A DNA stretch of 32,240 nucleotides from an archaeon (GCA_043815885.1 JBDRIL010000037.1:1-32240); one strand, 5' to 3'. Counted from the first letter of the stretch, positions 743 through 27,279 are shown. Notes: generated by a model from the sequence alone, not told the origin. Translations and numbers: made by a program.

Positions 743-1504
743 ATGAAAATGGAATATCACATTGTGAATTTAGTTGCTTCATCTAACCTGAATGCTACAC
801 TTGATTTATATAATCTGGCTATTTCTGTTCCAAACATTGAGTATGAACCGGAACAGTTTCCTGGAGCAATACTTAAATTAAAGGAACCAAAGGTTTCAAT
901 GCTTTTATTCAAGAACGGAAAAGTAATCTGCAGCGGGGCATCAAATGAAAAAGAAATATCCCAGGGAATCCTTAAAGCAAGCAAAATAATTCATGAAATC
1001 CAGCCCAAAGTAAAGGTATTGAAGGAAGTGGAATACACTGTAGTGAATCTGGTTGCTACAGCTAACCTGAACCAAACACTTGATTTATTCCAGACAGCAT
1101 TGACTCTGGATAACGTTGAATACGAGCCAGAACAGTTTCCTGGAGCAATATTAAGGCTGGAAGACCCAAAGCTAACTTTATTGTTATTCAAGAACGGAAA
1201 AGTGATTTGTGCCGGAGCAAAGAAAGAGGAATACTTGAAGAAAGGTCTGGAAAAAGCAGCTCAATTAATCAGCACGGTAGGGAAAGCAGAAACATCGAAA
1301 AGGATATTCAAGATGAAAGTGCCAAAGCCGGTAATTAAGGTAAAGCCAACGAAAAAAGTCAAAGCCAAAAAGAAGGTTAAGAAGAAAACAGTGAAGAAAA
1401 AAGTAAAAAAGAAAGGCAAACCAAAAAAGGCAGTGAAAAAGAAAGCCAAACCCAAAGCAAAAAAGGTAAAAAAGAAGGCTAAAAAGAGCAAAAGAAAGAA
1501 ATAA
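743..1504 (+). CDS. tbp: TATA-box-binding protein with a Lys-rich C-terminal extension
   Basis: Two TBP repeats, each with VNLVA...YEPEQFPGA...LLFKNGKVICxGA. The start could be 743 or 749. Confidence 0.97.
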   Translation: MKMEYHIVNLVASSNLNATLDLYNLAISVPNIEYEPEQFPGAILKLKEPKVSMLLFKNGKVICSGASNEKEISQGILKASKIIHEIQPKVKVLKEVEYTVVNLVATANLNQTLDLFQTALTLDNVEYEPEQFPGAILRLEDPKLTLLLFKNGKVICAGAKKEEYLKKGLEKAAQLISTVGKAETSKRIFKMKVPKPVIKVKPTKKVKAKKKVKKKTVKKKVKKKGKPKKAVKKKAKPKAKKVKKKAKKSKRKK

Positions 1505-3405: not shown

Positions 3406-3541
3406 TTTCCAATTCCTCTATCCTTATTTGAACGCAATTAAATATATTGCATTACCTACTTATAAAGATTCCTGGAAATTCCATTAGCTTTTTATTGGTT
3501 TTATTGGAAGGTTATTATTTACTATTTGAGGAGGCAAGAGA

Positions 3542-4336
3542 ATGAGCTGGGGATTAAAGAACAGGCTTTCAAGAATAATTCAGCCAAAGGATGGACGAAC
3601 AGTAATGCTTGCAATAGACCATGGGTATTTTTTAGGGCCGATAAGCAAATTAGAGGATCCAAGAAAAACGATTACTCCATTGATTCCTTATGCTGATGCA
3701 TTGATGCCTACAAGAGGAATAATTAGAACGTGTTTTGATGAAACACTGGAAAAGCCGTTTGTTTTGAGGGTTTCTGGAGGAAACAGCATTATCGGAGAGG
3801 ATCTATCCAATGAAGGAATAACTACTCCAATGGAGGAAGCAGTGAGACTGAATGCTTCTGCTGTTGCATTAAGCATTTATGTTGGAACAAAGCACGAAAA
3901 AGAGACATTGCTGAATTTATCTCATTTGGTGAGTGAAGGAGAAGAAAAAGGAATTCCTGTTCTGGCGGTGACTGCAGTGGGAAAGGAACTAGAAAAGAGA
4001 GATGCAAGGTATCTGAGTTTATGCTGCAGGATAGCAGCAGAATTAGGAGCGCATTTCGTGAAAACATATTACTGTGAAGACTTTGAGAAGGTAGTGAATG
4101 GATGTCCTGTTCCATTGGTTATTGCTGGCGGTCCTAAAATGAAGACAGAAATGGATGTATTCCAGATGGCTTACGATGCATTGGAGGCAGGAGCAATCGG
4201 AGTTGACATGGGAAGGAATATCTGGCAGAACGAGAATGCAATTGGAATGATTAAGGCAGTAAGGGCAGTAGTGCATGAAAAGGCTTCTCCAAAAGAAGCA
4301 ATGGAAGTCTTTGAAAGCGAGAAAAAGAAAAAATAA
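3542..4336 (+). CDS. lsrF: LsrF-type 3-hydroxy-5-phosphonooxypentane-2,4-dione thiolase (class I aldolase fold)
   Basis: MSWGLKNRLSRII, MLAIDHGYFLGP, RDARY, catalytic Lys in VKTYY, IAGGPK, GVDMGRNIWQ; SD GAGGAGG at 3528-3534. Confidence 0.88.
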   Translation: MSWGLKNRLSRIIQPKDGRTVMLAIDHGYFLGPISKLEDPRKTITPLIPYADALMPTRGIIRTCFDETLEKPFVLRVSGGNSIIGEDLSNEGITTPMEEAVRLNASAVALSIYVGTKHEKETLLNLSHLVSEGEEKGIPVLAVTAVGKELEKRDARYLSLCCRIAAELGAHFVKTYYCEDFEKVVNGCPVPLVIAGGPKMKTEMDVFQMAYDALEAGAIGVDMGRNIWQNENAIGMIKAVRAVVHEKASPKEAMEVFESEKKKK

Positions 4337-4358
4337 AAACTTTTTTTAGTGAAAGGAA

Positions 4359-5378
4359 ATGAAGGCAGCAGTATATTACAGCAACAGAGATGTGAGAATA
4401 GAGGAAGTGGAAAAGCCAGTGATAGAGGAAGGAGAATTACTGATTAGAGTTAAAGCTAGCAGTATCTGCGGCAGCGATGTAATGGAATGGTACAGGAAAA
4501 AGAAGGCTCCAATTGTATTAGGACATGAAGTAACAGGAGTAATAGAAGAAATTGGAAGGAATGTTAAGGGATTCAGGAAAGGAGACAGGGTGTTTGTAAC
4601 GCATCATGTTCCGTGCAATGAATGCTGGTATTGCGGAAAAGGAAAGGAAACTGTTTGTGATACATTAAAGAAGACTAATTTTATTCCAGGAGGATTTGCT
4701 GAATTCATCAGGATTCCAAAGACAAATGTAGAAAAAGGAACAATTAAGTTGCCTGAAGAAGTTTCTTTTGAGGAAGGAAGCTTCATTGAACCTTTAGGGT
4801 GTGTGGTCAGAGGCCAGAGAATTGCGGGAATGAAGAAGGGAAGTAATGTACTGGTTTTAGGGGGCGGGATTTCCGGATTGCTTCACATTCAGTTGGCAAA
4901 GGTATTGGGAGCAAAAAAAATTATTGCAACTGACGTGAATGAATACAGGTTGAATGCAGCAGAAAAATTTGGAGCAGATAAGGCAATTAAAGCAGGAGAG
5001 CTTAATGCAGAGAAATTGATTGAATTGAATGAAGGAAGGAAAGCTGATTTGGTTATTGTCTGCACTGGAGCAAAGAAAGCTTTTACTCAGGCATTTGAGT
5101 CAGTGGAAAAAGGAGGAACCATTCTATTGTTTGCTCCAACGCTTCCGGGAGAGAGTGTTCCTTTTCCTGTAAATGATGTGTGGATGAAGGGAGTGACAAT
5201 CACTGCTTCCTATGCAGCAGTAAAAGAGGATTTAATGGAAGCAATTAAATTAATCAGGGAAAAGAAAGTGAAAGTAAAGGAAATGATTACACATAAACTG
5301 AAATTAGAGGAAACAGGGAAAGGGTTCGAGTTAGTGGAAAAAGCAGAGGATTCAATTAAAGTAATTATTTATCCCTGA
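4359..5378 (+). CDS. Zn-dependent medium-chain (polyol/threonine dehydrogenase-like) dehydrogenase
   Basis: ICGSD, GHE, structural Zn motif CxxCxxCx7C, EPLGC and Rossmann GGGISG. The Asp in ATDV suggests NAD preference. Confidence 0.92.
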   Translation: MKAAVYYSNRDVRIEEVEKPVIEEGELLIRVKASSICGSDVMEWYRKKKAPIVLGHEVTGVIEEIGRNVKGFRKGDRVFVTHHVPCNECWYCGKGKETVCDTLKKTNFIPGGFAEFIRIPKTNVEKGTIKLPEEVSFEEGSFIEPLGCVVRGQRIAGMKKGSNVLVLGGGISGLLHIQLAKVLGAKKIIATDVNEYRLNAAEKFGADKAIKAGELNAEKLIELNEGRKADLVIVCTGAKKAFTQAFESVEKGGTILLFAPTLPGESVPFPVNDVWMKGVTITASYAAVKEDLMEAIKLIREKKVKVKEMITHKLKLEETGKGFELVEKAEDSIKVIIYP

Positions 5379-5379
5379 T

Positions 5380-6621
5380 TTAAATTCCCTTCAGAGCGCA
5401 GTACTCACCGCACATGGAACAGAAATCATTGCTTACTTTTGATTTTTTTCTGTATGCAATGGCTTTTTCTTTGTCTATTGCCAGAGAAAACATTTTGTTC
5501 CAGTTAAGCTTTTTTCTGTGGAAGGACATTTTTTCATCCCATTCCTTTGCTCCTTTAAGGCCTTTAGCGATGTCTGCTGCATGGGCAGCAATTCTTCCGG
5601 CAATCACTCCTTCCTTTACGTCTTCAATTGAGGGAAGGCTTAAGTGTTCTGCAGGAGTAACATAGCAGAGGAAGTCAGCTCCGTGGAATGCAGCCAAGGC
5701 TCCGCCAATTGCAGCAGTAATGTGGTCATAGCCAGGAGCAATATCTGTCACTAATGGCCCGAGAACATAGAATGGAGCATTATTGCAGTATTTTTTCTCT
5801 AATTCAATATTTCTCTTTATTTCATGCAATGGAATATGCCCTGGGCCTTCAATCATTACCTGAACATCTTTTTTCCAAGCGCGTTGAGTTAGTTTACCTA
5901 ATTCTTTTAGTTCACTTATTTGGGCTTTATCGGTTGAATCAAAGATGCTTCCAGGCCTTAAGCCATCGCCTAAACTGAGAGTTAAATCATATTTTTTTGC
6001 AATCTCTAATACTTCATCAAATGCTTCATATAAAGGGTTTTCCTGCTGGAAGTGATTCATCCATTTAATGAGCAAGGAACCGCCTCTGCTTACTACGCCA
6101 GTTTTTCTTTTTTTCAGGAGAGGAATGATTTTTTTTCTTACTCCTGAATGGATTGTAACAAAATCCACTCCGTCTTTCGCGTGTCTTTCAATTGATTGAA
6201 GGAAGTCTTTTTCCTGGACATTGAAGAATTTTTTTTCGATAAATGGCTGGTAGACTGGAACTGTTCCAATAGGAACAGAGCAGTTGCTTATTACTTTTTT
6301 TCTAATTGAATCAATGTTTCCTCCAATGCTTAAATCCATTACTGTATCGGTTCCAGCATTGAGTGCAACCTTTAATTTCCTTAATTCTGTTTTAAGGTTT
6401 GATTCACAGGGAGAACTGCCGATATTTGCGTTAACCTTTACCCTTAAACCTTCCCCTATCCCAATTGGGGAGAGTTTTTTATGGAGAGGATTTGCAGGAA
6501 TTACTGCTCGGCCTTTGGAAATTTTTTTTCTGAGAGAATCAGCTGAAAGAGATTCTTTTTTTGCGACTGTTTTCATTTCTCTGGTAATTATTCCTTTTCG
6601 GGCTTTCTCTAATTGAGTCAT
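5380..6621 (-). CDS. thiC: Phosphomethylpyrimidine synthase ThiC (short archaeal/anaerobe type)
   Basis: KVNANIG, TVMDLS, IGTVPVYQ, VSRGGS, SLGDGLRPG, MIEGPGH, FYVLGPLVTDIAPGYDH, YVTPAEHL, C-terminal CSMCGEYC. Confidence 0.9.
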   Translation of the reverse strand: MTQLEKARKGIITREMKTVAKKESLSADSLRKKISKGRAVIPANPLHKKLSPIGIGEGLRVKVNANIGSSPCESNLKTELRKLKVALNAGTDTVMDLSIGGNIDSIRKKVISNCSVPIGTVPVYQPFIEKKFFNVQEKDFLQSIERHAKDGVDFVTIHSGVRKKIIPLLKKRKTGVVSRGGSLLIKWMNHFQQENPLYEAFDEVLEIAKKYDLTLSLGDGLRPGSIFDSTDKAQISELKELGKLTQRAWKKDVQVMIEGPGHIPLHEIKRNIELEKKYCNNAPFYVLGPLVTDIAPGYDHITAAIGGALAAFHGADFLCYVTPAEHLSLPSIEDVKEGVIAGRIAAHAADIAKGLKGAKEWDEKMSFHRKKLNWNKMFSLAIDKEKAIAYRKKSKVSNDFCSMCGEYCALKGI

Positions 6622-6627
6622 GAAGGA

Positions 6628-7686
6628 TTACTTCCAGGACAGGGTTTTTATTTCTTGCGGGGAAAGAAGGCCTCTCTCAGTGAGAATTCCTTTAATGTAT
6701 TTGGCTGGAGTGACATCAAAGGCAGGATTTCTTGCATTAGAAGAAGGATTGCTTATGCGGAATTTTTCTTGTACGCCATTTTCATTCAAGCCTGTCTGGA
6801 ATAATACTTCTTCCTGGCTTCTTTCTTCAATTGGAATGGAGGAACCTTCCTTTACACTGAAATCAATTGAAGAGGTAGGAGCAGCAATGTAAAAAGGAAT
6901 ATTGAATTCCTTTGCAAGGATTGCTTTTTCAAGTGTGCCGATTTTGTTGGCGGAATCTCCGTTCAATGCAATCCTGTCAGCTCCAACAATAACTAAATCA
7001 ATTTCTTTTTTACTCATGTAATGGGCTGCGGCATTGTCAGGAATAATGGAATGAGGGACTCCTTCATTACTCAATTCCCATGCAGTTAGTTTTGCTCCCT
7101 GCAATTTTGGACGGGTTTCATCTACAAATACAAATACTTTCTTTCCTTTTCTGTGAGAGACATAGATTGGGCTTAAAGCTGTACCGTAATCAACAAATGC
7201 AAGCCATCCGGCATTACAGTGCGTGAGTATTTTCATTCCGTCCCTAATTAGAAGCTTTTCTCCTAGTTCGCCGATTTTTTTGCATGAAGCTGCATCTTCG
7301 TCTGCAATCTTTTTTGCTTCCAGGAATGCAGTCTGGGAAGGCCTTACAGAGGACTTTGCTTTATCGAATACTCTTTTTGTTGCATGGAATAAATTAATTG
7401 CCGTAGGGCGGGTGGATTCAATTTCCTTCCTTGCTTCTACTGCAAAGTTTAAATCAGAATTTCCTTCAATGAATGCCTGTGCTAGAGCAAATGCTGCTGC
7501 TGCACCAACTGCTCCAGCACCCCTTACAGTCATATTATTTATTGCTTCAATGGCTTCCCTGTAGGTTTTGCATTCGTGGATTTCAAAAGAAAAAGGAAGT
7601 TTTTCCTGATTGATGAGAAAAACCTTTGAACCTTCCATCCACACAGTGAGGTAATGCTTTTCTTTTCCTTCTACTTTTACTTTCAT
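6628..7686 (-). CDS. mtnA: Methylthioribose-1-phosphate / 5-deoxyribose-1-phosphate isomerase
   Basis: MTVRGA, TRPTAINL, LTHCNAGWLAFVDYGTAL, DETRP.LQGAKLTAWEL, GADRI, NKIGT, NPAFDVTP. The ATG at 7686 (MKVKVEG) is preferred over the TTG at 7710. Confidence 0.92.
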   Translation of the reverse strand: MKVKVEGKEKHYLTVWMEGSKVFLINQEKLPFSFEIHECKTYREAIEAINNMTVRGAGAVGAAAAFALAQAFIEGNSDLNFAVEARKEIESTRPTAINLFHATKRVFDKAKSSVRPSQTAFLEAKKIADEDAASCKKIGELGEKLLIRDGMKILTHCNAGWLAFVDYGTALSPIYVSHRKGKKVFVFVDETRPKLQGAKLTAWELSNEGVPHSIIPDNAAAHYMSKKEIDLVIVGADRIALNGDSANKIGTLEKAILAKEFNIPFYIAAPTSSIDFSVKEGSSIPIEERSQEEVLFQTGLNENGVQEKFRISNPSSNARNPAFDVTPAKYIKGILTERGLLSPQEIKTLSWK

Positions 7687-7792
7687 AAAAAAAACCTGCT
7701 TTTGGTACAATAATAAAAGTAAAAGAGTATGTTTTAATTTATTTGCCTTTCCTTATTAATTACATTATAACTTGGTTCTTTAGTGAAAAATA

Positions 7793-11253: not shown

Positions 11254-11727
11254 TTTTCGTTACAGTTGGAACTCACAGGCAGCAGTTTAATAGACTAATA
11301 CAGAAAATTGATGAATTGGTTAGGGAAGGGAAGATAAAGGAAGAAGTATTCATCCAGAAAGGAAATTCAACTTATATTCCAGAACACTGCATCCATAAAA
11401 GTTTTCTTGAACCAAAGGAATTCCAAAAAAAAAATAAAGGAATCTTCAATCATTGTAACACATGGAGGAGCAGGAGCAATTATCAGTTCCTTAAAAGAAG
11501 GAAAGGCAGTGATTGTTGTGCCAAGACTGGAGAAGTATGGCGAACATACAAATGACCATCAAATCGATTTGGTTAGGGTACTAGAGAAAAAAGGAAAAGT
11601 GATTGGATGCTTTGAATTGAATGATTTAGGGGAAAAAATAAATATTGCAAAGAAGTTCAAACCAAAAAAACAGGAAAAAACAAGGATAATAACTGCATTA
11701 AATGAATTTTTGAGGGAAGGAAATTGA
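11250..11727 (+). pseudogene. Alg13/PssE/Cps14G-like catalytic subunit, split by a one-base frameshift at an A10 tract (11425-11434)
   Basis: The N-half (MIFVTVGTHRQQFNRL, IQKG) and C-half (IIVTHGGAGAI, VVPRL..YGEHTNDHQ) are in different frames. Removing one A gives a continuous 158-aa protein. TTGA overlaps couple it to both neighbours. Confidence 0.85.
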
Positions 11728-13490
11728 ATAAGATAAAGGAAAAAACCGTTACACTGCTGATTGCTGTTCTTTATATTTTATTGTTCCTTATCTTTTCTTC
11801 AAGCTACTTCCATGATGACCTTGCATTTGATTTTGCTGGTTATGCAATACGTTATCAAAATGCTTTCACTGGATGGTTTGAAAATATTTATCTTGGTTTG
11901 CCTGCTTCAACCTATGACCCCTTTCTCCCAGCATTATTGCCAAAGACCTTTGCTTTCCTTGGTTTTGGTTCATTCACTCTTCCCCTAACCCTTTCAATCT
12001 TTTCATTCTTTATTTTAGTGCCTCTCTGTTTTGTTTTAGTTGGGAAAGAATTCAACTTCAGCAGAGAGAATTCACTTCTCTTTGGATTGATTTTTGTATT
12101 GAATCCAATTACCTTTAAGTTCTTGAACCGTTACTATGAATTGGCTGCATGGTTTTTCTTTTTACTGGCTTTTGTGTTTTTCTATAAATTCATTAAAGAA
12201 AAGAATTTCCCAAAAAAATATCTCGTATTTTCAGTTCTCTTTGCATGCCTGACTGCATTGTCTCATTTAGCTCCGTTCTTCTTTTTGTGTCTTGGAACAG
12301 TTTTCTTGATAAAAAACAGGTTAGAGTTAAAGAAGATTATTTTCTTCTTTGCTTCCGTGTTTTCCTTGATGGCATTCTGGTTTATTCCCTATTTCTACTA
12401 CTTACCTCTGTCATCCTCAAGTGTTCTCCAAGGAACGTCTCTAATAACTAGAGGAATCCTGTTCTCCACTTATTTTCTTGTAATAGTTTTATTGCTGCTG
12501 TTCTTTTTGTTTTATAGTCTTAGAAAAAAATACGCTTCCAATTATAGATTAATTCTCTTTTCTTTTTTGCTTTCACTATTACTCGTTTGCTTTCCCTCCC
12601 TTCCAATCCTTTCCGCTCCATTTTATCATTCTTATCATGTCTTCTTTATTTTTGTCATTCTTTTTTCTTTAATGCCTTTATTGAAGGAGAAACCTCTTTC
12701 AAAAAAGCACTTAATTGTGATTGCATTGGTTATTTTGGTTTGTGGTTTTGTTGCTTTTGAAGAAATTCAAAGGCAGTACTTTTTCAAAGAGCCAAGGTTT
12801 TCTGACAGCCCATACGGTTTCGGGGCTTTTGGTTTCAGTGATTTTTCAGAGATTGATTTACTTTTAAAAGAAATCCCTGCAAACAACAGGTTTGAGGTTA
12901 TTCCTTACGATCCATTGATTTCAGCTCATGCAACCGCAAAGTATGATTTGAGTTCCTTGAATGGATGGGGCTACAATCCTTACGCATTAAAGAAAAGCAA
13001 GAAAATTGCTGAAGAAATGATTTCAATGCAATTAAACTGCAGCGAGTTCTCTAAGGGGATTGAAGAAACGTTTACCATTTACTGGATTTCAATGGATTCA
13101 ACTGGATTCAATTATTTAAGTGAATGTGGATTAAGTGAAACAGCTGGAAAGGAACCAATAACTCTATTCAAATATGATAAAGAAGTTTCTTTCATAGAAA
13201 ACGGGGAATTAATTGATAGAAGCAATAATTACATTAAATTTGAGACAGGAGAGGGTTCGGTAAAGGTAAAAGAATCATATTTCCCGAGATGGAATGCTTA
13301 CTCTGGAGAAGAAGAGTTAAATGTTTTAGAAAAGGATGGAATAATGGAATTAAGAGTGAATGAACCAAAAATAATTGAATTAAAGTATGAATCAACAGAA
13401 ATCGATTATCTTGGAGTCGTAATCTCTTTTATTGCCTTAATTTCTTTAGCAATAGTTTTAAGTAAAAAGAATATGCCTCCACATTTTTAG
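11724..13490 (+). CDS. Multi-pass membrane protein, putative GT-C fold glycosyltransferase (YfhO-like C-terminus)
   Basis: More than 10 hydrophobic segments, an acidic first loop (HDDLAFDF), LSH, C-terminal VKESYFPRWNAY and a final TM helix. Confidence 0.6.
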   Translation: MNKIKEKTVTLLIAVLYILLFLIFSSSYFHDDLAFDFAGYAIRYQNAFTGWFENIYLGLPASTYDPFLPALLPKTFAFLGFGSFTLPLTLSIFSFFILVPLCFVLVGKEFNFSRENSLLFGLIFVLNPITFKFLNRYYELAAWFFFLLAFVFFYKFIKEKNFPKKYLVFSVLFACLTALSHLAPFFFLCLGTVFLIKNRLELKKIIFFFASVFSLMAFWFIPYFYYLPLSSSSVLQGTSLITRGILFSTYFLVIVLLLLFFLFYSLRKKYASNYRLILFSFLLSLLLVCFPSLPILSAPFYHSYHVFFIFVILFSLMPLLKEKPLSKKHLIVIALVILVCGFVAFEEIQRQYFFKEPRFSDSPYGFGAFGFSDFSEIDLLLKEIPANNRFEVIPYDPLISAHATAKYDLSSLNGWGYNPYALKKSKKIAEEMISMQLNCSEFSKGIEETFTIYWISMDSTGFNYLSECGLSETAGKEPITLFKYDKEVSFIENGELIDRSNNYIKFETGEGSVKVKESYFPRWNAYSGEEELNVLEKDGIMELRVNEPKIIELKYESTEIDYLGVVISFIALISLAIVLSKKNMPPHF

Positions 13491-14378: not shown

Positions 14379-15314
14379 TTAGCCCACATCTCCTGACAAG
14401 TTGTTTTCATCTTCCATTACAAAAGGAGGAGTAAACTTTGGTTCTTTAAACGGAATATAAATTCTTTTTTTTCTCCGCTCTCTTAAAATTATTCTCCAGT
14501 CTTTTAAGTTATTCCAATAGGATTTCAATAATAACATAAATCTCTTCTCTTTAATGCTGTTAACAGCTATTAACCCCAAACCAGGCACGAATTTGATTAA
14601 TTCACCCAAAGACAGATTAAATAACATGCTTCTAAGCCTGTGCGTGTTGAGTAAAACAAATTGTTTTTGATTGCCTAATCCCTTGCTTGCGTCTTTTGAG
14701 GAAAAATGTATTACAATACATTTAGAGCATTCCATTATCCTGTAACCAAGTTTTCTGGCCCTAAAATTCCAGTCTGCTTCTTCGCCATAAACTGGAGAAA
14801 AGTATTCTGTATCAAGATAGCCCACTTCTTGCAACATCTTGCGTTTCATTACCCAGCCAACAGGAAGAGTCATTTTTTCTCTGTTAGGGGAATTCCTTAT
14901 TTTTTCAATTAATTCCTTGTCTTCAAATTGTTGTGGAGAAACTTCCTTTACTCCAACGATGCCTATCTTTTCATCTGACTCCAAAAGGTTGATTGCCTCA
15001 TTAAGCCAATCCTTTGTAACCAAAGCATCGTTATTCATTGGAACCAAATAATTTCCTCTCGAGACTCTATATCCTTGATTTAATCCATAAGGAAAGCCTT
15101 TATTGACTTTGTTTTTTATAAAGATTAAATCCGGGAATTGTTTTTCCAGTCTTTCACATGAACCATCTTTGCTTCCATTGTCAACTAATATAATTTCATA
15201 ATTTATGTCTGGAGTATTTTTTTTTATTGAATTAATGCAGTTTTTTGTGTAACCATAGCTGTTCCAATTCAATATTATTATGGAGGCATCAGGTTTACTC
15301 TTTGTTCTTTTCAT
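14379..15314 (-). CDS. GT2 glycosyltransferase (rhamnosyltransferase-like group)
   Basis: IIILNWN, VDNGSKDGS, NKGF..GLNQG, NNDA, YGEEADWNFR. The ATG at 15314 follows an SD-like GGTGGT. Confidence 0.88.
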   Translation of the reverse strand: MKRTKSKPDASIIILNWNSYGYTKNCINSIKKNTPDINYEIILVDNGSKDGSCERLEKQFPDLIFIKNKVNKGFPYGLNQGYRVSRGNYLVPMNNDALVTKDWLNEAINLLESDEKIGIVGVKEVSPQQFEDKELIEKIRNSPNREKMTLPVGWVMKRKMLQEVGYLDTEYFSPVYGEEADWNFRARKLGYRIMECSKCIVIHFSSKDASKGLGNQKQFVLLNTHRLRSMLFNLSLGELIKFVPGLGLIAVNSIKEKRFMLLLKSYWNNLKDWRIILRERRKKRIYIPFKEPKFTPPFVMEDENNLSGDVG

Positions 15315-16710
15315 TTTTTGACCACCTGAAAACATTGGTAGATCCAACGGATTCCTTGTTTTTTTCGTTTAGCCTTGCAATCTCTTTTGTCATTATATCA
15401 ACGACTTCTTGGAATTCCTGTTCCGTCATTTTAAAAGAAAAATGATTGAAAGGACTCTCAGGTTCAAACATATAAAAGTCTTCTTCTTTTATACTGTAAA
15501 GAGAATAAAACTTGGTTCCTGGAAACGGCGTGAAGATATGCATTGAGGTGTGGCTTGGATTCAATTCCTTCATAAACTCCAGTGTCTCAAGAATATTCTC
15601 TTTTGTTTCCATTGGCAATCCAATCATTATAAATCCCTTCCAAGGCAAACCAACTTTTTTAAAGATTTTTGAAGCCTGCCTCATTTCTTCTTTGGTTACT
15701 CCCTTGTTGCACTGTCTAAGTACTTCATTGTTACCACTCTCAATTCCAATTCCAACACTTGCACACCCTGCTTCTTTTATTCGTCTGCATATTTCTTCAT
15801 CAATATTTGTTGCCCTCTCTTGACATTCCCAGGTAATATCCAGATTTTCTCTTTTGATTGCTCCACAAAACTCCTCAACCCTTTTTCTTGGCACCAAAAA
15901 ATTGTCGTCTTCAATATATATGTGTGTAGTGCCAAATTTTTCTTTGACGTGTTTTATTTCTTCTATCACATTTCCAACCGACCTATATCTTACGGTGCCA
16001 TTCCAAACCACTCTTGAAGCACAGTAGAAACAGTTGTAAGGACAGCCCCTTACTGTCATCATTAAACCGAAATCCCTTGGAGTATATTTTTCTTTGTTTA
16101 TTATTAATTCTCTGAAAGTGAAAGGCAGTTCATCCAAGTCTTCTATAAACCTTCTTTTATTGTTTGCAATTATTTTTCCATCATCCTTCCAATAAAGACC
16201 ATCCACGTTCTGAAAGTCTTTTTTTCCGTTCTCAATTTTTCCAGCAAGTTCAGCAAAAGTTATTTCACCTTCGCCTTTTACTACAAAGTCTATTTCAGGG
16301 TGATTGATTACATCAAAAGGCAAAGCCGTAGCATGAGGCCCTCCGATCGCTATTCTTATTTCAGGGTTTATTTCCTTTGCAATCCTTGCGGTAAGATATG
16401 CTGACTGATTTTTGGATGAAATCGCGCTAATCCCAATCAAATCTGGTTTGTATTTTTTTATTACCTCACGCATTTCTTTCCATACTTCATGCTGGGGATC
16501 TTTTATTCCTTTAATGTATTCTGGATAATTTTTTATTTGCTCTCTTCTATTCATTGAGACCGCTTCTGGATCAAAGTCTGCATCATAAACCCTCGCTCTA
16601 TGCCCTGCCTTGTCTAAATAGCCTGCAATGTATGCAATCGATAAGGGATAATAAAATCTCCTGTATCCCATGAATCTATGCATCGGTGGGTCAAGTAACA
16701 ATACATTCAT
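15295..16710 (-). CDS. B12-binding-domain radical SAM protein
   Basis: YPLSIAYIAGYL, GGPHAT, KGEGE, RGCPYNCFYC, EDDNF, GIESG. Confidence 0.93.
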   Translation of the reverse strand: MNVLLLDPPMHRFMGYRRFYYPLSIAYIAGYLDKAGHRARVYDADFDPEAVSMNRREQIKNYPEYIKGIKDPQHEVWKEMREVIKKYKPDLIGISAISSKNQSAYLTARIAKEINPEIRIAIGGPHATALPFDVINHPEIDFVVKGEGEITFAELAGKIENGKKDFQNVDGLYWKDDGKIIANNKRRFIEDLDELPFTFRELIINKEKYTPRDFGLMMTVRGCPYNCFYCASRVVWNGTVRYRSVGNVIEEIKHVKEKFGTTHIYIEDDNFLVPRKRVEEFCGAIKRENLDITWECQERATNIDEEICRRIKEAGCASVGIGIESGNNEVLRQCNKGVTKEEMRQASKIFKKVGLPWKGFIMIGLPMETKENILETLEFMKELNPSHTSMHIFTPFPGTKFYSLYSIKEEDFYMFEPESPFNHFSFKMTEQEFQEVVDIMTKEIARLNEKNKESVGSTNVFRWSKNEKNKE

Positions 16711-16719
16711 TTTTTTGCC

Positions 16720-17685
16720 TCAAAAAATTGAACTCCTCACCGGACAATTCCTGCAGATGTTCGGAAGATTCTTTGACTTAAGCTTTTCCCTGAAGCCTTT
16801 GTAGTTTTCCGAATTCCATATTTCTTTTATTCCCTGTTTTTTTGCATTACCCATGACACATTCTTCAATTATCCTTTTTGAATCTCTCTGCATTACAAAA
16901 CAACATGGAAGAACCTTTCCCTCAGCATTAATGTAAAGAGAATTCCAAGGCAGGTAACATGCCCCCATATCCTTTCTCTCTGAAGGGAAACCTATTATCT
17001 GTATTCCCTCTTCTTCTGCTTTAGTCAATATTTCTTGTTTCTTTTCCTCAAACAAATCCTTATCTTTTACGGCAAAAGACTCGTTTCCTTTAAACTCTAT
17101 CATTCCAACAAACAGTATTTTTTTTATTCCAAGTTCTTTTGCAAGCAAAACAAATTCTTTCAGTTCAGAAAGATTCTCTTCCATTACCACTACAACAAAA
17201 AACAATTCAGGCACATTCTTCTTTAATTCCTTTTTTATTTCTTGAAAGTTTTTTATATTCTCTTTTACAACGTTAAATTTGGCTCCCCGTCTTATTGCCT
17301 CATACGTTTCTCTTCTTGCTCCATCCATGGATACTGCTATGGCATCTGTCCCTAACTGGATTAATTTTTTTGCCTTATCTTTTGTCATTAAAGTAAAATT
17401 ACTGTTAAACCATACATAAATATTTTTTCTTTTAGCATATTCAATCATATTAAAAAAATCTTTGTTCAGTAGGCTTTCTCCTATTCCTGTAAAGTTGATT
17501 AATTGAAAGAATTCATTTGAATCAATGATTTTTCTGAATTCCTGGAAATTCAAATCGAAAGGATTTTCTTTTGTGTGTGAGTGCTCACACATAACGCAAT
17601 CAAGATTGCACGCAGTGGTTATTTCTATTTGGAGAGACAATGGATAATGGGAAAGCGCCAAAGGCATATTTTTTTGGTCCATCAC
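16720..17685 (-). CDS. Radical SAM protein with SPASM/Twitch domain
   Basis: CNLDCVMC, GIGE, VSMDGA..ETY..IRRG; C-terminal CYLPW...G.V.PCC...GN...CRNC. Confidence 0.92.
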   Translation of the reverse strand: MMDQKNMPLALSHYPLSLQIEITTACNLDCVMCEHSHTKENPFDLNFQEFRKIIDSNEFFQLINFTGIGESLLNKDFFNMIEYAKRKNIYVWFNSNFTLMTKDKAKKLIQLGTDAIAVSMDGARRETYEAIRRGAKFNVVKENIKNFQEIKKELKKNVPELFFVVVVMEENLSELKEFVLLAKELGIKKILFVGMIEFKGNESFAVKDKDLFEEKKQEILTKAEEEGIQIIGFPSERKDMGACYLPWNSLYINAEGKVLPCCFVMQRDSKRIIEECVMGNAKKQGIKEIWNSENYKGFREKLKSKNLPNICRNCPVRSSIF

Positions 17686-17734
17686 CCGGTAATAAAGATT
17701 TAATGCTCCCTTTATTCCTTTATTTTTTATTGCC

Positions 17735-19210
17735 CTAATTACTGCATCTGATTTTTTTTGAAGTATGCTGTTCCCTCCTCTTTAACCCAAACATATACAT
17801 CGTTCTCTTAATTAATTCCCTTGAAAATCCATTGAATTGCTGAAAAAACCTTTTCCATAAGCCTAATTCAAGTAAATACTTTGGTTTTATTTTAAGCAAA
17901 CCCATTCCATAATTTTTTTCTTCATAAGCTTTTTGGATTAACGGCAAAACATTTTTTTCAAATTCATTCCAAGGAATTATTTCCTCATTCAAGTAAGCTC
18001 GCTTATGAAAGCCTGCACTCCAATCAGAGAAATCCATATCATCAGCTGCTAACCCCTTTTCTTTTGCTAGTTCCCAGAACTCGTTTTGAGGGTAAGCCAA
18101 TAACTGGAAAAACAGGACTCTATCCAAATTCGGATTCCTGACTAATTCAAAGCTTTTTTCAATGTCCTGCATTGTTTCCCCTGGAACCCCAAAAATAAAA
18201 GTGCCTTCAGTTTTTAGCTTATGTCTTCCGCAAGCATCCAACGCACTGTAATGTTGTTTCACTGTAGCGCTTTTATCCTTTAAATAACTAAGTATTCTTT
18301 CACTTCCGCTCTCTAAACCAAAATTAATGTATTGAGTATTAAATGACTTCAATATCTTACATGTCTCGTTATCAATCAAGCTGGTTCTACCATAAACATA
18401 GAATTCAGTCTTTTGGTGGATTCCTTCTTTTCTAAGCAATTCAGCGATTCTCTTCAATCTTTTTTTGTCTATCACAAATAAGTCATCCATTACTTTAATC
18501 ATATCAATTTTAGGATACTTCTCAATCAACTGAATTATTTCTCTTGCAACATATTCTGGAGAGTGAAAGCGCATTGTTCTCTGCCAGAAATGTTGCTGAG
18601 AACAAAAAAGACAGTTAAAACAACATCCTCTGTTGGTTATTATGCTTGTGCCGATTGAAAGCTTGTCAAAGGAATGCCTTGCAGGTTTAAGGTAATATTC
18701 CTTTATTTTCATTAAGTCTCTTGCAGGAAAAGGGATTAAGTCCAATGGTTCAATATTCTTTCTTCTCTCGTTAATGACAACTTTTCCTTTCTCATGAAAA
18801 CAAATTCCTTTAATTTTATTTAATTCTTTTGATTCAAATGATTTCTTTCTTTCAAATAATTCAATTAATTCACTTAAGGTTTTTTCTCCTTCCCCAAGGA
18901 TGCCAATATCAAAGCAGTCAGGCATTAAATGAGGCAAGGCAGTCACATGAAATCCGCCTAAGAGAATTGGAACATTTGTTTCTTCCTTGACTTTTCTTGC
19001 TAATGATTTTGCTTTCTCGTAGTCAATAGTTGTACAGGAAATTCCAATCAAGTCAGGTTTTTCTCTCTTGATTCCCTTCAACAAATTCTCTTTATCAATA
19101 ATAACAGTATTATCAAATCCATTATATTTCCTTAAATAAGACGCCAAGTAACCTAATCCAAGAGGAGGCAATGCTTCTACTTCGTCAATGCTAACTAATG
19201 CAAGCTTCAT
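17735..19210 (-). CDS. B12-binding-domain radical SAM protein
   Basis: PPLGLGYLASYL, GGFHVT, GEGE, RGCCFNCLFC, MDDLF, GLESGS. Confidence 0.93.
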   Translation of the reverse strand: MKLALVSIDEVEALPPLGLGYLASYLRKYNGFDNTVIIDKENLLKGIKREKPDLIGISCTTIDYEKAKSLARKVKEETNVPILLGGFHVTALPHLMPDCFDIGILGEGEKTLSELIELFERKKSFESKELNKIKGICFHEKGKVVINERRKNIEPLDLIPFPARDLMKIKEYYLKPARHSFDKLSIGTSIITNRGCCFNCLFCSQQHFWQRTMRFHSPEYVAREIIQLIEKYPKIDMIKVMDDLFVIDKKRLKRIAELLRKEGIHQKTEFYVYGRTSLIDNETCKILKSFNTQYINFGLESGSERILSYLKDKSATVKQHYSALDACGRHKLKTEGTFIFGVPGETMQDIEKSFELVRNPNLDRVLFFQLLAYPQNEFWELAKEKGLAADDMDFSDWSAGFHKRAYLNEEIIPWNEFEKNVLPLIQKAYEEKNYGMGLLKIKPKYLLELGLWKRFFQQFNGFSRELIKRTMYMFGLKRREQHTSKKIRCSN

Positions 19211-25818: not shown

Positions 25819-27279
25819 ATGAAGAAAAGAATGAAGGTATTAATATTGAATCCGCCTTTCCTGCCAAAATTCAGCCGGACCTCTAGGTCGCCAGCAGTAT
25901 CAAAAGGTGCAACAATCTATTATCCACTCTGGCTGGCGTATGCAACAGGAGTTTTGGAGAAAGAAGGATTTGAATGTAAGCTTATTGATGCACCTGCAAG
26001 AGGTTTAAGCTTGAAAGAAGTAATCAGGATAGCAAAAAAATTCAAGCCGGAAATGACTGTAATAGATACAAGCACTCCAAGCATTTACAATGACGTGAAA
26101 GTATTAGAGAATATAAAGGAAAGCCTTAATTGTTTCTGTGTACTGGTTGGAACCCATGTAAGTGCTTTGCCTGAGGAAAGCATTGGATTAAGTAAAAAAA
26201 TAGATGTAATTGCAAGAAAGGAATATGATTACACATTGAAAGAATTGGCCAAGGCATTGAGAGACAAAAAGGAATGGAGGAAAGTGAAAGGCATTTCTTA
26301 CAGGAAAAAAAACAAGGTTGTCCATAACAGAGACACTCCATTTATTGAGGATTTGGATGAATTGCCTTTTGTTTCAAGTGTCTATAAAAAACATTTAAGG
26401 ATAGAAGATTATTTTTATGCAGCAAACCTTTACCCAGAAATAACTATTATTACTGGAAGAGGCTGTCCAAACAGATGCACTTACTGTGTATTGCCACAGG
26501 TAATGAACGGGCATAATTACAGAACCAGGAGCGTTAAAAATGTGGTGGAAGAATTCAAGTATATCAAGGAAAACTTTCCTCAAGTGAAAGAAGTATTCAT
26601 TGAAGACGATACCTTTACTTCAGACAAGTTAAGGGTTAGAGATTTCTGTGATGAGTTAGTGAAAGAAAAATTAAAGGTTACCTGGAGTTGTAATGCAAGG
26701 GCAGACGTTGATCTGATAACGTTAAAAAAAATGAGGGAAGCAGGGTGCAGGCTGCTTTGCGTTGGGTTTGAGTCAGGGGTTCAAGAAATACTGAATAATA
26801 TGAAGAAGGGAACAAAGCTTGAAATAATTAGGAGATTCATGAAGGACGTGAAGAAAGCTGGAATCCTTGTGCATGGATGCTTTATGCTGGGAAATAAGGG
26901 AGAAACAAAGGAAACAATTGAAGAAACAATTGAATTCGCAAAAGAACTTGATCCGGATACAGCGCAATTCTTTCCCATAATGGTTTATCCCGGGACAGAA
27001 GCATATGGCCACTTTAAGGAAAAAGGCTTTCTGGAAAGCGAGGACTTCAGCAAATGGCTGACAGAGGACGGAAACCATTACTGTATTGTTTCCACTCCAA
27101 TTCTTTCAAACAAGGAATTGGTTGAGTTATGCGACAAGGGAAGAATGGAATTCTATTTAAGGCCCAAATACATTGGAAAAAAAGTAATTCAATCAATCAC
27201 AAATCCAAGAGAGATTCCGAGATTAGTGAAGAGCGGAAAGACTTTTTATAAATATTTGTTTAAAAAGGTAAAAAAATGA
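25819..27279 (+). CDS. B12-binding-domain radical SAM protein (HpnJ-like N-terminus)
   Basis: LNPPF..FSR..R.PA...YYPLWLAYATGVL, TSTPS, GRGCPNRCTYC, EDDTFT, VGFESG, YPGT. Confidence 0.92.
   Translation: MKKRMKVLILNPPFLPKFSRTSRSPAVSKGATIYYPLWLAYATGVLEKEGFECKLIDAPARGLSLKEVIRIAKKFKPEMTVIDTSTPSIYNDVKVLENIKESLNCFCVLVGTHVSALPEESIGLSKKIDVIARKEYDYTLKELAKALRDKKEWRKVKGISYRKKNKVVHNRDTPFIEDLDELPFVSSVYKKHLRIEDYFYAANLYPEITIITGRGCPNRCTYCVLPQVMNGHNYRTRSVKNVVEEFKYIKENFPQVKEVFIEDDTFTSDKLRVRDFCDELVKEKLKVTWSCNARADVDLITLKKMREAGCRLLCVGFESGVQEILNNMKKGTKLEIIRRFMKDVKKAGILVHGCFMLGNKGETKETIEETIEFAKELDPDTAQFFPIMVYPGTEAYGHFKEKGFLESEDFSKWLTEDGNHYCIVSTPILSNKELVELCDKGRMEFYLRPKYIGKKVIQSITNPREIPRLVKSGKTFYKYLFKKVKK

Follow-up and report, generated by a model that had tools for sequence, protein, structure and literature searches.

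Genome interpretation and comparative analysis of an archaeal contig of 32,240 nt (the window) suggest, with a probability of roughly one half, a salvage route for 5'-deoxyadenosine in which a zinc-dependent dehydrogenase and an LsrF-like protein would complete the conversion of the sugar moiety to DHAP and acetyl-CoA. In the proposed route, MtnP, encoded in an operon with the adenine phosphoribosyltransferase gene apt, would split 5'-deoxyadenosine by phosphorolysis into adenine and 5-deoxyribose-1-P, and MtnA, whose gene lies beside the cassette and is predicted to be co-transcribed with thiC, would isomerize the latter to 5-deoxyribulose-1-P. The NAD-dependent dehydrogenase would then oxidize the CH3-CHOH- carbon (C4), yielding 3-hydroxy-2,4-pentanedione-5-phosphate (P-HPD). 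Finally, LsrF would bind the DHAP portion through a lysine Schiff base and transfer the acetyl portion to CoA. The net output would be DHAP, acetyl-CoA and NADH, and free acetaldehyde would be avoided; methylthioribulose-1-P may undergo the same treatment. On paper the chemistry is sound, since C4 oxidation of 5-deoxyribulose-1-P yields P-HPD, a product that 1-deoxyxylulose-5-P would give as well. A literature search retrieved no paper describing an MtnA-dehydrogenase-LsrF route. The pathway had been put forward in an earlier sequence-only reading of the window, which, taken as a whole, is partly supported by the results presented here.

Arrangement of the Locus and Genomic Complement

The gene encoding the LsrF orthologue (3542..4336, plus strand, 264 amino acids) and that of the zinc/NAD medium-chain dehydrogenase (4359..5378, plus strand, 339 amino acids) are separated by 22 nt (4337-4358). 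GAGGAGG is located 8 nt 5' of the lsrF ATG, and GAAAGGA precedes the ATG of the dehydrogenase gene. As deduced from the sequence and the ORF limits, the A+T-rich intergenic region upstream of lsrF (3406..3541, plus strand) is common with a divergent Na+/H+ exchanger gene. On the minus strand, mtnA (6628..7710), encoding the 5-methylthioribose-1-P/5-deoxyribose-1-P isomerase, is followed after 6 nt by thiC (5380..6621), encoding HMP-P synthase, as the second gene of the unit. The stops of thiC and the dehydrogenase gene are only 1 nt apart, and therefore the two units converge. The ORFs and the 22-nt gap thus correspond exactly to the apparent operon converging on mtnA-thiC that had been described before.

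MtnA was identified by TIGR00512 (378.9 bits, cut-off 279), and its assignment as ribose-1,5-bisphosphate isomerase was rejected (199.7 bits, cut-off 314). ThiC matched PF01964 (638 bits) and, in the NCBIfam profile search, NF009895 (647.7 bits). It is a radical-SAM enzyme from which 5'-deoxyadenosine is released. Pfam searches confirmed four additional radical-SAM genes, namely a minus-strand trio at 15295..19210 (15295-16710, 16720-17685 and 17735-19210; Radical_SAM, two with B12-binding and one with SPASM domains) and a further B12-binding member at 25819..27279 on the plus strand (Radical_SAM 82 bits, B12-binding 44 bits). The five radical-SAM genes previously proposed to supply the substrate are therefore real, but the four additional ones all reside within a glycosylation cluster and represent a generic source of 5'-deoxyadenosine only. 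Genome-wide, 19 radical-SAM domain matches were obtained.

The corresponding genome comprises 1.16 Mb and is 92% complete. The phosphorylase that had been predicted to reside elsewhere in it was found in an apt-mtnP operon on contig C39 (MTAP model TIGR01694, 282.8 bits, cut-off 274.85). Furthermore, triose-phosphate isomerase is present. Neither a class II aldolase (PF00596 profile search) nor a spermidine synthase was found in the 92%-complete genome, and tblastn searches of it returned no homologues of LsrK, LsrG, LsrB and LsrR. The absence of lsrK, lsrG and a class II aldolase, claimed earlier for the window, accordingly extends to the genome, which holds no full lsrK/lsrG set, as expected.

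The LsrF-Like Protein and Its Dehydrogenase Partner

The LsrF-like protein exceeded the cut-off of NF006081 (389.4 versus 297 bits) and scored within the range of six cassette-linked LsrF proteins of other loci (347-425 bits), with E. coli LsrF reaching 560 bits. Profile models classify it as LsrF and not as FBP aldolase; an assignment as ADH synthase was rejected, as both models failed (193 versus 299 and 219 versus 241 bits). Identity to E. coli LsrF amounts to 50% over the whole core, and the closest structure matches are PDB 3GKF (E 2.7e-80) and, as the second-closest solved relative, MJ0400 (PDB 2QJG, E 5e-46). In the alignment to E. coli LsrF, the Schiff-base lysine is retained as K174 within a KTYY motif, aligning with the residue that we take to be K203 of the E. 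coli enzyme; the DHG motif is retained as well. Judged by its sequence, the product of 3542-4336(+) is an LsrF orthologue of the DeoC/LacD fold, i.e., a class I aldolase-type Schiff-base enzyme. It is proposed to act as a CoA-dependent thiolase cleaving P-HPD to DHAP and acetyl-CoA, and presumably it has retained this thiolase chemistry.

The dehydrogenase carries the zinc medium-chain (Zn-MDR) domains ADH_N and ADH_zinc_N (Pfam), and scored below the cut-offs of all named NCBIfam models, the top match being Tdh with 205 bits, far from the cut-offs of 380 and 458. Its clade comprises more than 582 species with 55-64% identity. Throughout an alignment of 26 clade sequences, the catalytic zinc residues C37, H56, E57 and E144, the structural zinc residues C86, C89, C92 and C100, and D192 are invariant; the position of D192 in the Rossmann fold suggests a preference for NAD. 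By these features the protein is a member of a distinct, highly conserved NAD-type zinc medium-chain clade. Its proposed role is that of a 5-deoxyribulose-1-phosphate 4-dehydrogenase, both the substrate and the regiochemistry being inferred.

Tdh, the nearest named relative, oxidizes a CH3-CHOH- group, and in the Tdh/Kbl system the oxidized product is then split with CoA to give acetyl-CoA. By analogy, the dehydrogenase and LsrF may follow the same logic, namely Zn-MDR oxidation and subsequent CoA cleavage of a beta-dicarbonyl compound to acetyl-CoA. The systems differ in that Kbl is a PLP enzyme, whereas the cleaving enzyme of the cassette is the Schiff-base LsrF, and in that the proposed cassette substrate is a sugar phosphate.

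Conservation of the Cassette and Linkage to MtnA and MtnP

In order to evaluate conservation, 80 dehydrogenase loci were surveyed, the best among those of over 582 anaerobic species, both bacterial and archaeal. The predicted linkage was recovered: lsrF adjoins the dehydrogenase gene in 66 of these 80 loci and in all three close relatives of a first sample of the window's order. Of the 64 loci in which the distance was measured, 62 have lsrF on the strand of the dehydrogenase gene and no more than 1.7 kb away, and it is missing despite sufficient room in 12 of the 80. Moreover, the identity matrices of both proteins are correlated (Mantel r 0.66, a value that none of 999 permutations attained). 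These data suggest that both genes form a single co-transcribed, horizontally spread cassette.

Cassette genomes nearly always encode MtnA, as anticipated. Within the window's order, MtnA occurs in 5/6 LsrF-bearing genomes versus 36/190 others (Fisher p 0.0017), and in Dehalococcoidia in 32/33 cassette genomes versus 85/118 others (p 0.0017), although these and all further p-values overstate the case because related genomes are not independent. In Hadarchaeota the difference is not significant (26/30 versus 15/22, p 0.17), and in another sample 45 of 50 cassette genomes passed the MtnA cut-off. MtnA is common in cassette-free genomes anyway (72% of Dehalococcoidia, 68% of Hadarchaeota), and 11 of 119 cassette genomes lack a match above the cut-off, some of them containing fragments.

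The expected linkage of the cassette to mtnA and/or mtnP was observed in archaea as well as bacteria and in several gene orders (the window, genomes G047 and G048, loci L034, L036, L096, L029 and L155, and, with an IF-2B isomerase gene, L082 and L069). For example, mtnP converges on mtnA-lsrF-x-dehydrogenase in L034, L096 shows the order mtnA-HAD-x-lsrF-dehydrogenase with mtnP 3 kb off, and L029 contains thiC, a radical-SAM gene and mtnA divergent from lsrF. In the Dehalococcoidia genome with L155, lsrF-dehydrogenase converges with mtnP...mtnA. However, mtnA is located within 10 kb in only six of the 80 loci, and the linkage may partly reflect block inheritance, since the cassettes nearest to that of the window (L034, L036, L029) are the linked ones.

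Relation to Class II Aldolases and Alternative Functions

An anti-correlation between cassette and class II aldolase had been predicted. It is clear in Hadarchaeota (aldolase in 4/30 cassette genomes versus 13/22 others, p 0.0008), weak in the window's order and absent in Dehalococcoidia (24/33 versus 88/118, p 0.82). Within the window's order, the aldolase gene lies within 3 kb of mtnA in 24 of 41 MtnA genomes, and cassette genomes G000, G003 and G033 lack it. No aldolase was found in 38 MtnA neighbourhoods from cassette genomes. However, at 10 or more of the 80 loci the cassette directly adjoins class II aldolase genes, which belong to several different subfamilies, and the same applies to G047 and G048 of the window's own order and to L150-L154 and L156 (L152, L153, L154 and L156 being from Dehalococcoidia). 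Hence, the cassette cannot be regarded as a simple stand-in for the aldolase, and replacement is not general.

These adjoining genes favor a possible, albeit rather unlikely, alternative in which the cassette serves the same deoxy-pentose salvage alongside the class II aldolase and not in its place. For example, the dehydrogenase might then act on the aldehyde product (acetaldehyde or 2-methylthioacetaldehyde), reducing or oxidizing it as the ADH does in the DHAP-ethylene shunt, and one of the two ketopentose phosphates might be cleaved by the LsrF-like protein as a class I aldolase or transaldolase. Alternatively, two branches may divide MTA-derived and 5'-deoxyadenosine-derived sugars between them. 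Consistent with this, L082 and L069 combine genes for an IF-2B isomerase, aldolase, ALDH, LsrF and dehydrogenase, in that order, in one operon. Moreover, in the window's order all eight genomes encoding spermidine synthase and MtnA possess the aldolase, including the cassette-bearing G047 and G048, and three cassette-only genomes are devoid of spermidine synthase, but this pattern is not significant (8/32 versus 0/9, p 0.16). The dehydrogenase is bound far more tightly to LsrF than to any aldolase, and its partner matches the LsrF model and neither FBP aldolase nor ADH synthase. Furthermore, no class II aldolase occurs in the window genome, G003, G033, G358 and 26 of 30 Hadarchaeota cassette genomes, where the cassette must therefore function without one.

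Degradation of another deoxy-ketose phosphate unrelated to SAM by-products, such as 1-deoxy-D-xylulose-5-phosphate (DXP) or a DKFP-type 6-deoxyhexulose phosphate, is improbable. DXP (CH3-CO-CHOH-CHOH-CH2OP) would likewise become P-HPD when oxidized at C4, the methyl-ketone sugar DKFP is a substrate of the LsrF relative MJ0400, and two of the 80 loci (L103 and L038) have a gene for DXP synthase no more than 10 kb away. In addition, an EamA-type transporter gene directly 5' of lsrF in 13 of the 80 loci may indicate that some bacteria import the substrate. However, DXP synthase was not found in the 92%-complete window genome, where the sole DXS-like match is a transketolase (Transketolase_N 182 bits, DXP_synthase_N 27 bits), and the recurrent neighbours are mtnA and mtnP, not dxs or fucose/rhamnose genes. 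MDR enzymes of the Tdh, sorbitol and galactitol-1-P types oxidize the penultimate carbon beside CH3 or CH2OH, which fits 5-deoxyribulose-1-P and not C4 of DXP.

It is very unlikely that the cassette operates biosynthetically, with LsrF joining acetyl-CoA and DHAP and the dehydrogenase drawing the reaction forward by reducing the diketone to a deoxy-pentulose phosphate for a cofactor, e.g., thiamine. Thiolase-reductase pairs such as PhaA/PhaB can work synthetically, thiC lies beside the cassette in the window and in L029, and NMT1/THI5-like genes follow the dehydrogenase gene in 10 of the 80 loci, but bacterial NMT1-like proteins are mostly binding proteins. D192 suggests an NAD-linked, catabolic enzyme, linkage to the MtnP phosphorylase and adenine salvage (apt) point to breakdown, and we know of no archaeal cofactor pathway requiring a deoxy-pentulose phosphate. 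Least credible is true autoinducer-2 catabolism, in which LsrF would act on phospho-AI-2 imported from neighbours: the LsrF cut-off is passed and a PGAP-style annotation would read AI-2 thiolase, yet LsrK, LsrG, LsrB and LsrR homologues are absent from the genome and all 80 cassette loci, the lsr pathway has no role for a dehydrogenase, and the cassette resides in archaea and in bacterial anaerobes that are uncultured.

Comparison with Known Systems and Biological Meaning

LsrF of E. coli and Salmonella (PDB 3GKF, 3GLC, 4P2V) belongs to the same curated-HMM family as the window protein, which has no counterpart to the N-terminal 31 residues of the enterobacterial enzyme. As summarized in PMC7828210 (citing Marques 2014), it converts P-HPD and CoA to DHAP and acetyl-CoA, a reaction identical to that proposed here. 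In contrast, lsrK, lsrG, lsrACDB and lsrR are missing throughout the window genome, the window-type LsrF is always paired with a zinc dehydrogenase, and its proposed substrate would derive from 5'-deoxyadenosine and not from AI-2.

The DHAP shunt for 5-deoxyribose disposal, as outlined in PMC6079011 and PMC10986504, employs MtnP or MtnN plus MtnK/DrdK, then MtnA/DrdI, and finally the class II aldolase Ald2/DrdA. Its first two steps, MtnP and MtnA, are also encoded in the window genome, and the proposed route would share its input (5'-deoxyadenosine, possibly MTA) and its product DHAP. Unlike the shunt, it would end without the class II aldolase, which the genome lacks, in oxidation and CoA thiolysis to acetyl-CoA and NADH and not in acetaldehyde; certain other genomes carry the two endings next to each other. 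For Methanocaldococcus jannaschii, the same two sources outline the conversion of 5-deoxyribulose-1-P to 6-deoxy-5-ketofructose-1-P as an archaeal fate of the MtnP/MtnA product. The LsrF-like protein is related to the ADH synthase MJ0400 of this organism but fails the ADH synthase models, its partner is a dehydrogenase, and a dehydroquinate synthase II context was not observed.

If the proposed route is true, the sugar waste of SAM-using enzymes would yield DHAP and acetyl-CoA with no need for the aldolase that is normally employed.

Gene arrangement in the window

The lsrF-like gene (3542-4336, plus strand), called as an ORF of 264 aa with a DeoC/LacD fold, is followed after a gap of 22 nt by the gene for a zinc-dependent medium-chain dehydrogenase (4359-5378, plus strand; 339 aa), and purine-rich ribosome-binding motifs precede both. 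On the minus strand, mtnA (6628-7710) is located 6 nt upstream of thiC (5380-6621), and co-transcription of these two genes is predicted for the genome concerned (G000; 1.16 Mb in 62 contigs, the window being C37; 92% complete). The radical-SAM enzyme ThiC shows sensitivity to 5'-deoxyadenosine (5'-dA). Since a single base separates the stop codons of the dehydrogenase gene and thiC, two operons converge head-on at this point. ORF calling placed all four genes exactly as described in the sequence-only reading, and the observation is therefore real. The mtnA product passed the MtnA model TIGR00512 (378.9 bits, cut-off 279) and scored well under the cut-off of the ribose-1,5-bisphosphate isomerase model TIGR00511 (199.7 versus 314 bits).

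Domain searches revealed a TATA-binding protein (TBP), AglB/STT3 and an extensive glycosylation cluster, which identify the window as archaeal. The cluster (7793-31939) comprises AglB, Alg14/Alg13-like genes, about ten glycosyltransferase genes, two sugar epimerase/dehydratase genes, a UDP-GlcNAc 2-epimerase gene and two methyltransferase genes. Three B12-binding radical-SAM genes and one SPASM radical-SAM gene in this cluster hint that a glycan is methylated or otherwise modified by radical chemistry. The TBP ORF (743-1504, plus strand) is 253 aa long as called and may start too early or bear an N-terminal extension, since the higher-scoring of two TBP repeat matches spans residues 98-177. 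Two plus-strand ORFs, namely 3-566 (187 aa, 5' end open) and 11724-13490 (588 aa), showed neither Pfam nor NCBIfam matches.

Identity of the LsrF-like protein and the dehydrogenase

The LsrF-like protein passed the curated equivalog model for 3-hydroxy-5-phosphonooxypentane-2,4-dione thiolase (NF006081; 389.4 bits, cut-off 297), for which E. coli LsrF scored 559.9 bits and six further cassette-linked LsrF proteins 347-425 bits. It is 50% identical to LsrF of E. coli K-12, and its closest solved structures are those of LsrF (3GKF, 3GLC and 4P2V; E about 1e-80), with MJ0400 (5e-46) coming next. K174, located in a KTYY motif, aligns with the Schiff-base lysine of 3GKF (chain position 205, native 203), K203 of E. 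coli LsrF. Compared with enterobacterial LsrF, the first 31 residues are absent, the NF006081 match beginning at model position 32, and this absence is common to all six other cassette-linked LsrF proteins examined. Assignments as ADH synthase (TIGR01949, 192.9 versus 299.45 bits; NF005556, 218.8 versus 241 bits) or as archaeal class I FBP aldolase (NF040816, 145.2 versus 430 bits) were rejected based on the respective cut-offs.

The dehydrogenase, a member of the zinc medium-chain dehydrogenase/reductase superfamily, features the Pfam domains ADH_N and ADH_zinc_N (95.9 and 91.5 bits) and fell under the cut-off of all 23 named NCBIfam models. L-threonine 3-dehydrogenase (Tdh) was the best named model, with both curated cut-offs being missed (NF003808, 204.7 versus 380 bits; TIGR00692, 204 versus 458 bits). 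Solved relatives, namely ADH, ketose reductase, Tdh and sorbitol dehydrogenase, scored 145-170 bits with no standout. An alignment of 26 clade members from bacteria and archaea showed a mean column identity of 74%, with the catalytic zinc ligands C37, H56, E57 and E144, the structural-zinc cysteines C86, C89, C92 and C100, and D192 being invariant. The latter is the acidic residue of the Rossmann fold that usually marks the use of NAD over NADP.

Conservation of the gene pair

Three of the 40 relatives sampled first encode a close LsrF (67-76% identity), and each of them carries the dehydrogenase gene directly 3' of lsrF within differing flanks. In one genome of the window's order (G033), a NifU-like gene is split by an intein that contains a LAGLIDADG homing endonuclease (L013:4027-5556). 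Scanning one genome per species located the dehydrogenase clade in more than 582 species. The best 80 loci of these, at 55-64% dehydrogenase identity, belong to bacteria (Dehalococcoidia, Thermodesulfobacteriota, Binatia, Nitrospirae, WOR-3 and Omnitrophota) and archaea (Thermoplasmatota, Hadarchaeota, Halobacteriota and DPANN groups). Clustering of all ORFs detected LsrF in 66 of these 80 loci, a count that, like all counts on the 80 loci, includes one unpublished locus (L060, genome G227), which adds one and on which no claim rests. In 62 of 64 measured loci, lsrF lies on the same strand within 1.7 kb of the dehydrogenase gene, and in 58 upstream of it. Among the 14 loci lacking LsrF, two were cut too near to judge; in the other 12, which offered enough room, LsrF is absent from the DNA compared (L030, L032, L038, L039, L072, L088, L090, L094, L098, L100, L102 and L107, mostly Thermoplasmatota, Halobacteriota and Methanosarcinales records).

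Furthermore, pairwise identities of LsrF and the dehydrogenase are correlated (Mantel r 0.66, reached by none of 999 permutations), which is the pattern of co-inherited genes, yet to some extent expected for any gene pair sharing the same genomes. The gene pair noted in the sequence-only reading is a conserved cassette well beyond the window, and lsrF and the dehydrogenase gene almost certainly constitute one functional module.

A conserved small protein encoded between the two genes was rejected, the intervening ORFs of five loci (L034, L036, L101, L153 and L154) being mutually unrelated and having no counterpart in G000. The sole intervening ORF with a family, found at one locus only, is a 74-aa 4-oxalocrotonate-tautomerase-family gene of a Dehalococcoidia genome (L156:5439-5663, G293; PF01361, 55 bits); next to an enzyme that cleaves beta-diketones, a keto-enol tautomerase could act in the manner of LsrG. 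Recurrent neighbours in the 80 loci were EamA transporters (13), class II aldolases (at least 10), IF-2B-family isomerases (6) and MtnP (2). In its 13 loci (Binatia, deltaproteobacterial-type; e.g., L087:7695-8588), the EamA-family gene immediately precedes lsrF in the same orientation. In addition, NMT1/THI5-like binding-protein genes were observed 3' of the dehydrogenase gene on the opposite strand in 10 of the 80 loci.

Association with MtnA and MtnP

Linkage of the cassette to mtnA or mtnP, proposed as a check in the sequence-only reading, was encountered in several arrangements in archaea and bacteria; chance alone would place one given gene at most 10 kb from another in about 1-2% of genomes of this kind. 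A Methanosarcinales MAG (L034) encodes mtnA-lsrF-x-dehydrogenase (x, an intervening ORF) convergent with mtnP, L036 features mtnA ... lsrF-x-dehydrogenase, and L096 mtnA-HAD-x-lsrF-dehydrogenase with mtnP 3 kb further on. L029 carries thiC and a radical-SAM gene in convergent orientation to mtnA, the latter being divergent from lsrF. In a Dehalococcoidia genome of 1.0 Mb (L155), lsrF-dehydrogenase is convergent with mtnP-maf-methyltransferase-mtnA, and in G047 and G048, from another family of the window's order, mtnA-aldolase converges on lsrF-dehydrogenase. The bacterial loci L082 and L069 show the order isomerase-aldolase::SCP2-aldehyde dehydrogenase-lsrF-dehydrogenase. The cassettes nearest to that of the window, L034, L036 and L029, are themselves mtnA-linked, and therefore part of the linkage may represent one inherited block.

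At the genome level, MtnA was detected in 5/6 cassette genomes versus 36/190 others within the window's order (196 genomes; cassette-bearing defined by an LsrF of the same clade at 62% identity or more; Fisher p 0.0017), in 32/33 versus 85/118 of 151 Dehalococcoidia genomes at least 85% complete (five genomes with weaker dehydrogenase matches of 300-362 bits scored as cassette-less; p 0.0017) and in 26/30 versus 15/22 of 52 Hadarchaeota genomes at least 80% complete (p 0.17), p-values to be read in view of MtnA being common in two groups anyway and of related genomes not being independent. The sixth cassette genome of the window's order, in which MtnA was not found, is 67% complete. Among 50 cassette genomes drawn from the wide scan, MtnA exceeded the cut-off in 45, and several of the remainder contain fragments. 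As far as genome completeness allows, these four samples bear out the rule that the cassette implies MtnA. Moreover, G000 encodes the phosphorylase that the sequence-only reading expected elsewhere in the genome, namely MtnP on contig C39 (G000:C39:17094-17864; TIGR01694, 282.8 versus 274.85 bits), directly after a phosphoribosyltransferase gene. The module probably belongs to MtnP/MtnA-dependent salvage.

A second MtnA-like match of about 195-215 bits was observed in open frames of 505-572 aa in G199, G207, G210, G213-G218, G223, G226, G227 (unpublished) and G243, and in G092:C35 an MtnA-like and a class II aldolase match share one frame of 574 aa. The long frames with a second MtnA-like match suggest isomerase fusions alongside canonical MtnA and the cassette.

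Relation to class II aldolases

The DHAP shunt and G000 have the phosphorylase MtnP in common, whereas the class II aldolase (Ald2/DrdA) of the shunt was not found in G000, neither with the PF00596 profile at 92% genome completeness nor when three class II aldolases of related loci served as tblastn queries; the absence noted for the window hence extends to the whole assembly. Within the window's order, mtnA is normally accompanied, in a DHAP-shunt-like manner, by a class II aldolase gene no more than 3 kb away (24 of 41 MtnA genomes), e.g., in sister genus g2 of the window's family. The cassette occurs in 2/32 MtnA genomes with aldolase versus 3/9 without (G000, G003 and G033; p 0.06).

The predicted anti-correlation between cassette and aldolase was seen in Hadarchaeota, where aldolase is present in 4/30 cassette genomes versus 13/22 others (p 0.0008) and MtnA genomes divide into 23 with the cassette only, 7 with aldolase only, 3 with both and 8 with neither. 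It failed in Dehalococcoidia (24/33 versus 88/118) and was consequently rejected as a general rule. No aldolase was found in 38 MtnA neighbourhoods drawn from cassette genomes, and aldolases of several subfamilies adjoin the cassette in L073, L101, L152, L153, L154, L156, G047 and G048, none of which passed the MtnB model. These mixed counts indicate that the cassette can stand without an aldolase, yet both are kept together in many genomes. A division of labour with the aldolase serving the sugar of MTA and the cassette that of 5'-dA was examined through spermidine synthase (present in G001, G047 and G048; absent in G000, G003 and G033), which across the order showed the right direction at 8/32 versus 0/9, but no significance (p 0.16).

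In G001:C2, of the window's family, mtnA is followed by a gene (L157:5184-6347) for a 387-aa fusion of a weak class II aldolase-like with a Bud32/protein-kinase-like domain, which might be an aldolase-kinase for methylthioribose or 5-deoxyribose.

Proposed pathway and alternative substrates

The dehydrogenase would oxidise C4 of 5-deoxyribulose-1-phosphate (CH2OP-CO-CHOH-CHOH-CH3) to CH2OP-CO-CHOH-CO-CH3, i.e., 3-hydroxy-2,4-pentanedione-5-phosphate (P-HPD), the substrate of LsrF, and the cassette-linked LsrF, as its putative activity, would split P-HPD with CoA into DHAP and acetyl-CoA. Tdh, sorbitol dehydrogenase and galactitol-1-phosphate dehydrogenase, the named enzymes most closely related to the dehydrogenase, oxidise the penultimate carbon of their substrates. 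The Tdh/Kbl couple, in which CoA is then used to free acetyl-CoA, follows the same logic. G000 contains 19 radical-SAM domain matches and a triose-phosphate isomerase; ADP-forming acetyl-CoA synthetase (PF13607) was not found in this genome. Going beyond gene identities and genomic associations, the full chemistry is given a probability of about 0.5. The salvage interpretation of the sequence-only reading is supported in part.

Oxidation of 1-deoxyxylulose-5-phosphate (DXP) at C4 would yield the same product, P-HPD, and this sugar is therefore kept as a rival substrate for bacteria. It was rejected for the G000 archaeon, in which DXP synthase was not found and the sole DXS-like match is a transketolase. 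Catabolism of AI-2 was rejected, tblastn with E. coli K-12 LsrK, LsrG, LsrB and LsrR yielding no match in the whole of G000 (confirming for the genome the lack of lsrK and lsrG noted for the window) and LsrA generic ABC ATPases alone, with no LsrK, LsrG, LsrB or LsrR homologues in the 80 cassette loci. Salvage of 5-deoxyribulose-1-phosphate is the preferred reading.

To our knowledge, every radical-SAM enzyme releases inhibitory 5'-dA, and the known disposal routes leave most anaerobes uncovered. The fates listed as known in PMC6079011, PMC6302742 and PMC10986504 are the DHAP shunt, 7-deoxysedoheptulose and, as a proposal, the DKFP route of M. jannaschii. In the full-text literature searched, which covers few subscription journals, no paper ties LsrF to SAM by-product salvage, and the combination of 5-deoxyribulose, dehydrogenase and acetyl-CoA retrieved E. 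coli DHAP-shunt papers only. The cassette plausibly represents a widely distributed variant way of completing the salvage of SAM by-products, one that seems not to have been described. More tentatively, and with somewhat less confidence than the chemistry itself, it may be a main, hitherto undescribed means by which hundreds of species of anaerobic bacteria and archaea dispose of 5'-dA, and perhaps MTA, converting the sugar to DHAP, acetyl-CoA and NADH with no free acetaldehyde; the 'AI-2 thiolase' label would then be wrong, and enterobacterial LsrF a late recruit from an older salvage enzyme. If true, this would provide a function for a dehydrogenase clade of more than 582 species, explain LsrF genes lacking AI-2 machinery, correct a widespread annotation and add an aldehyde-free, energy-conserving ending to the salvage of SAM by-products.
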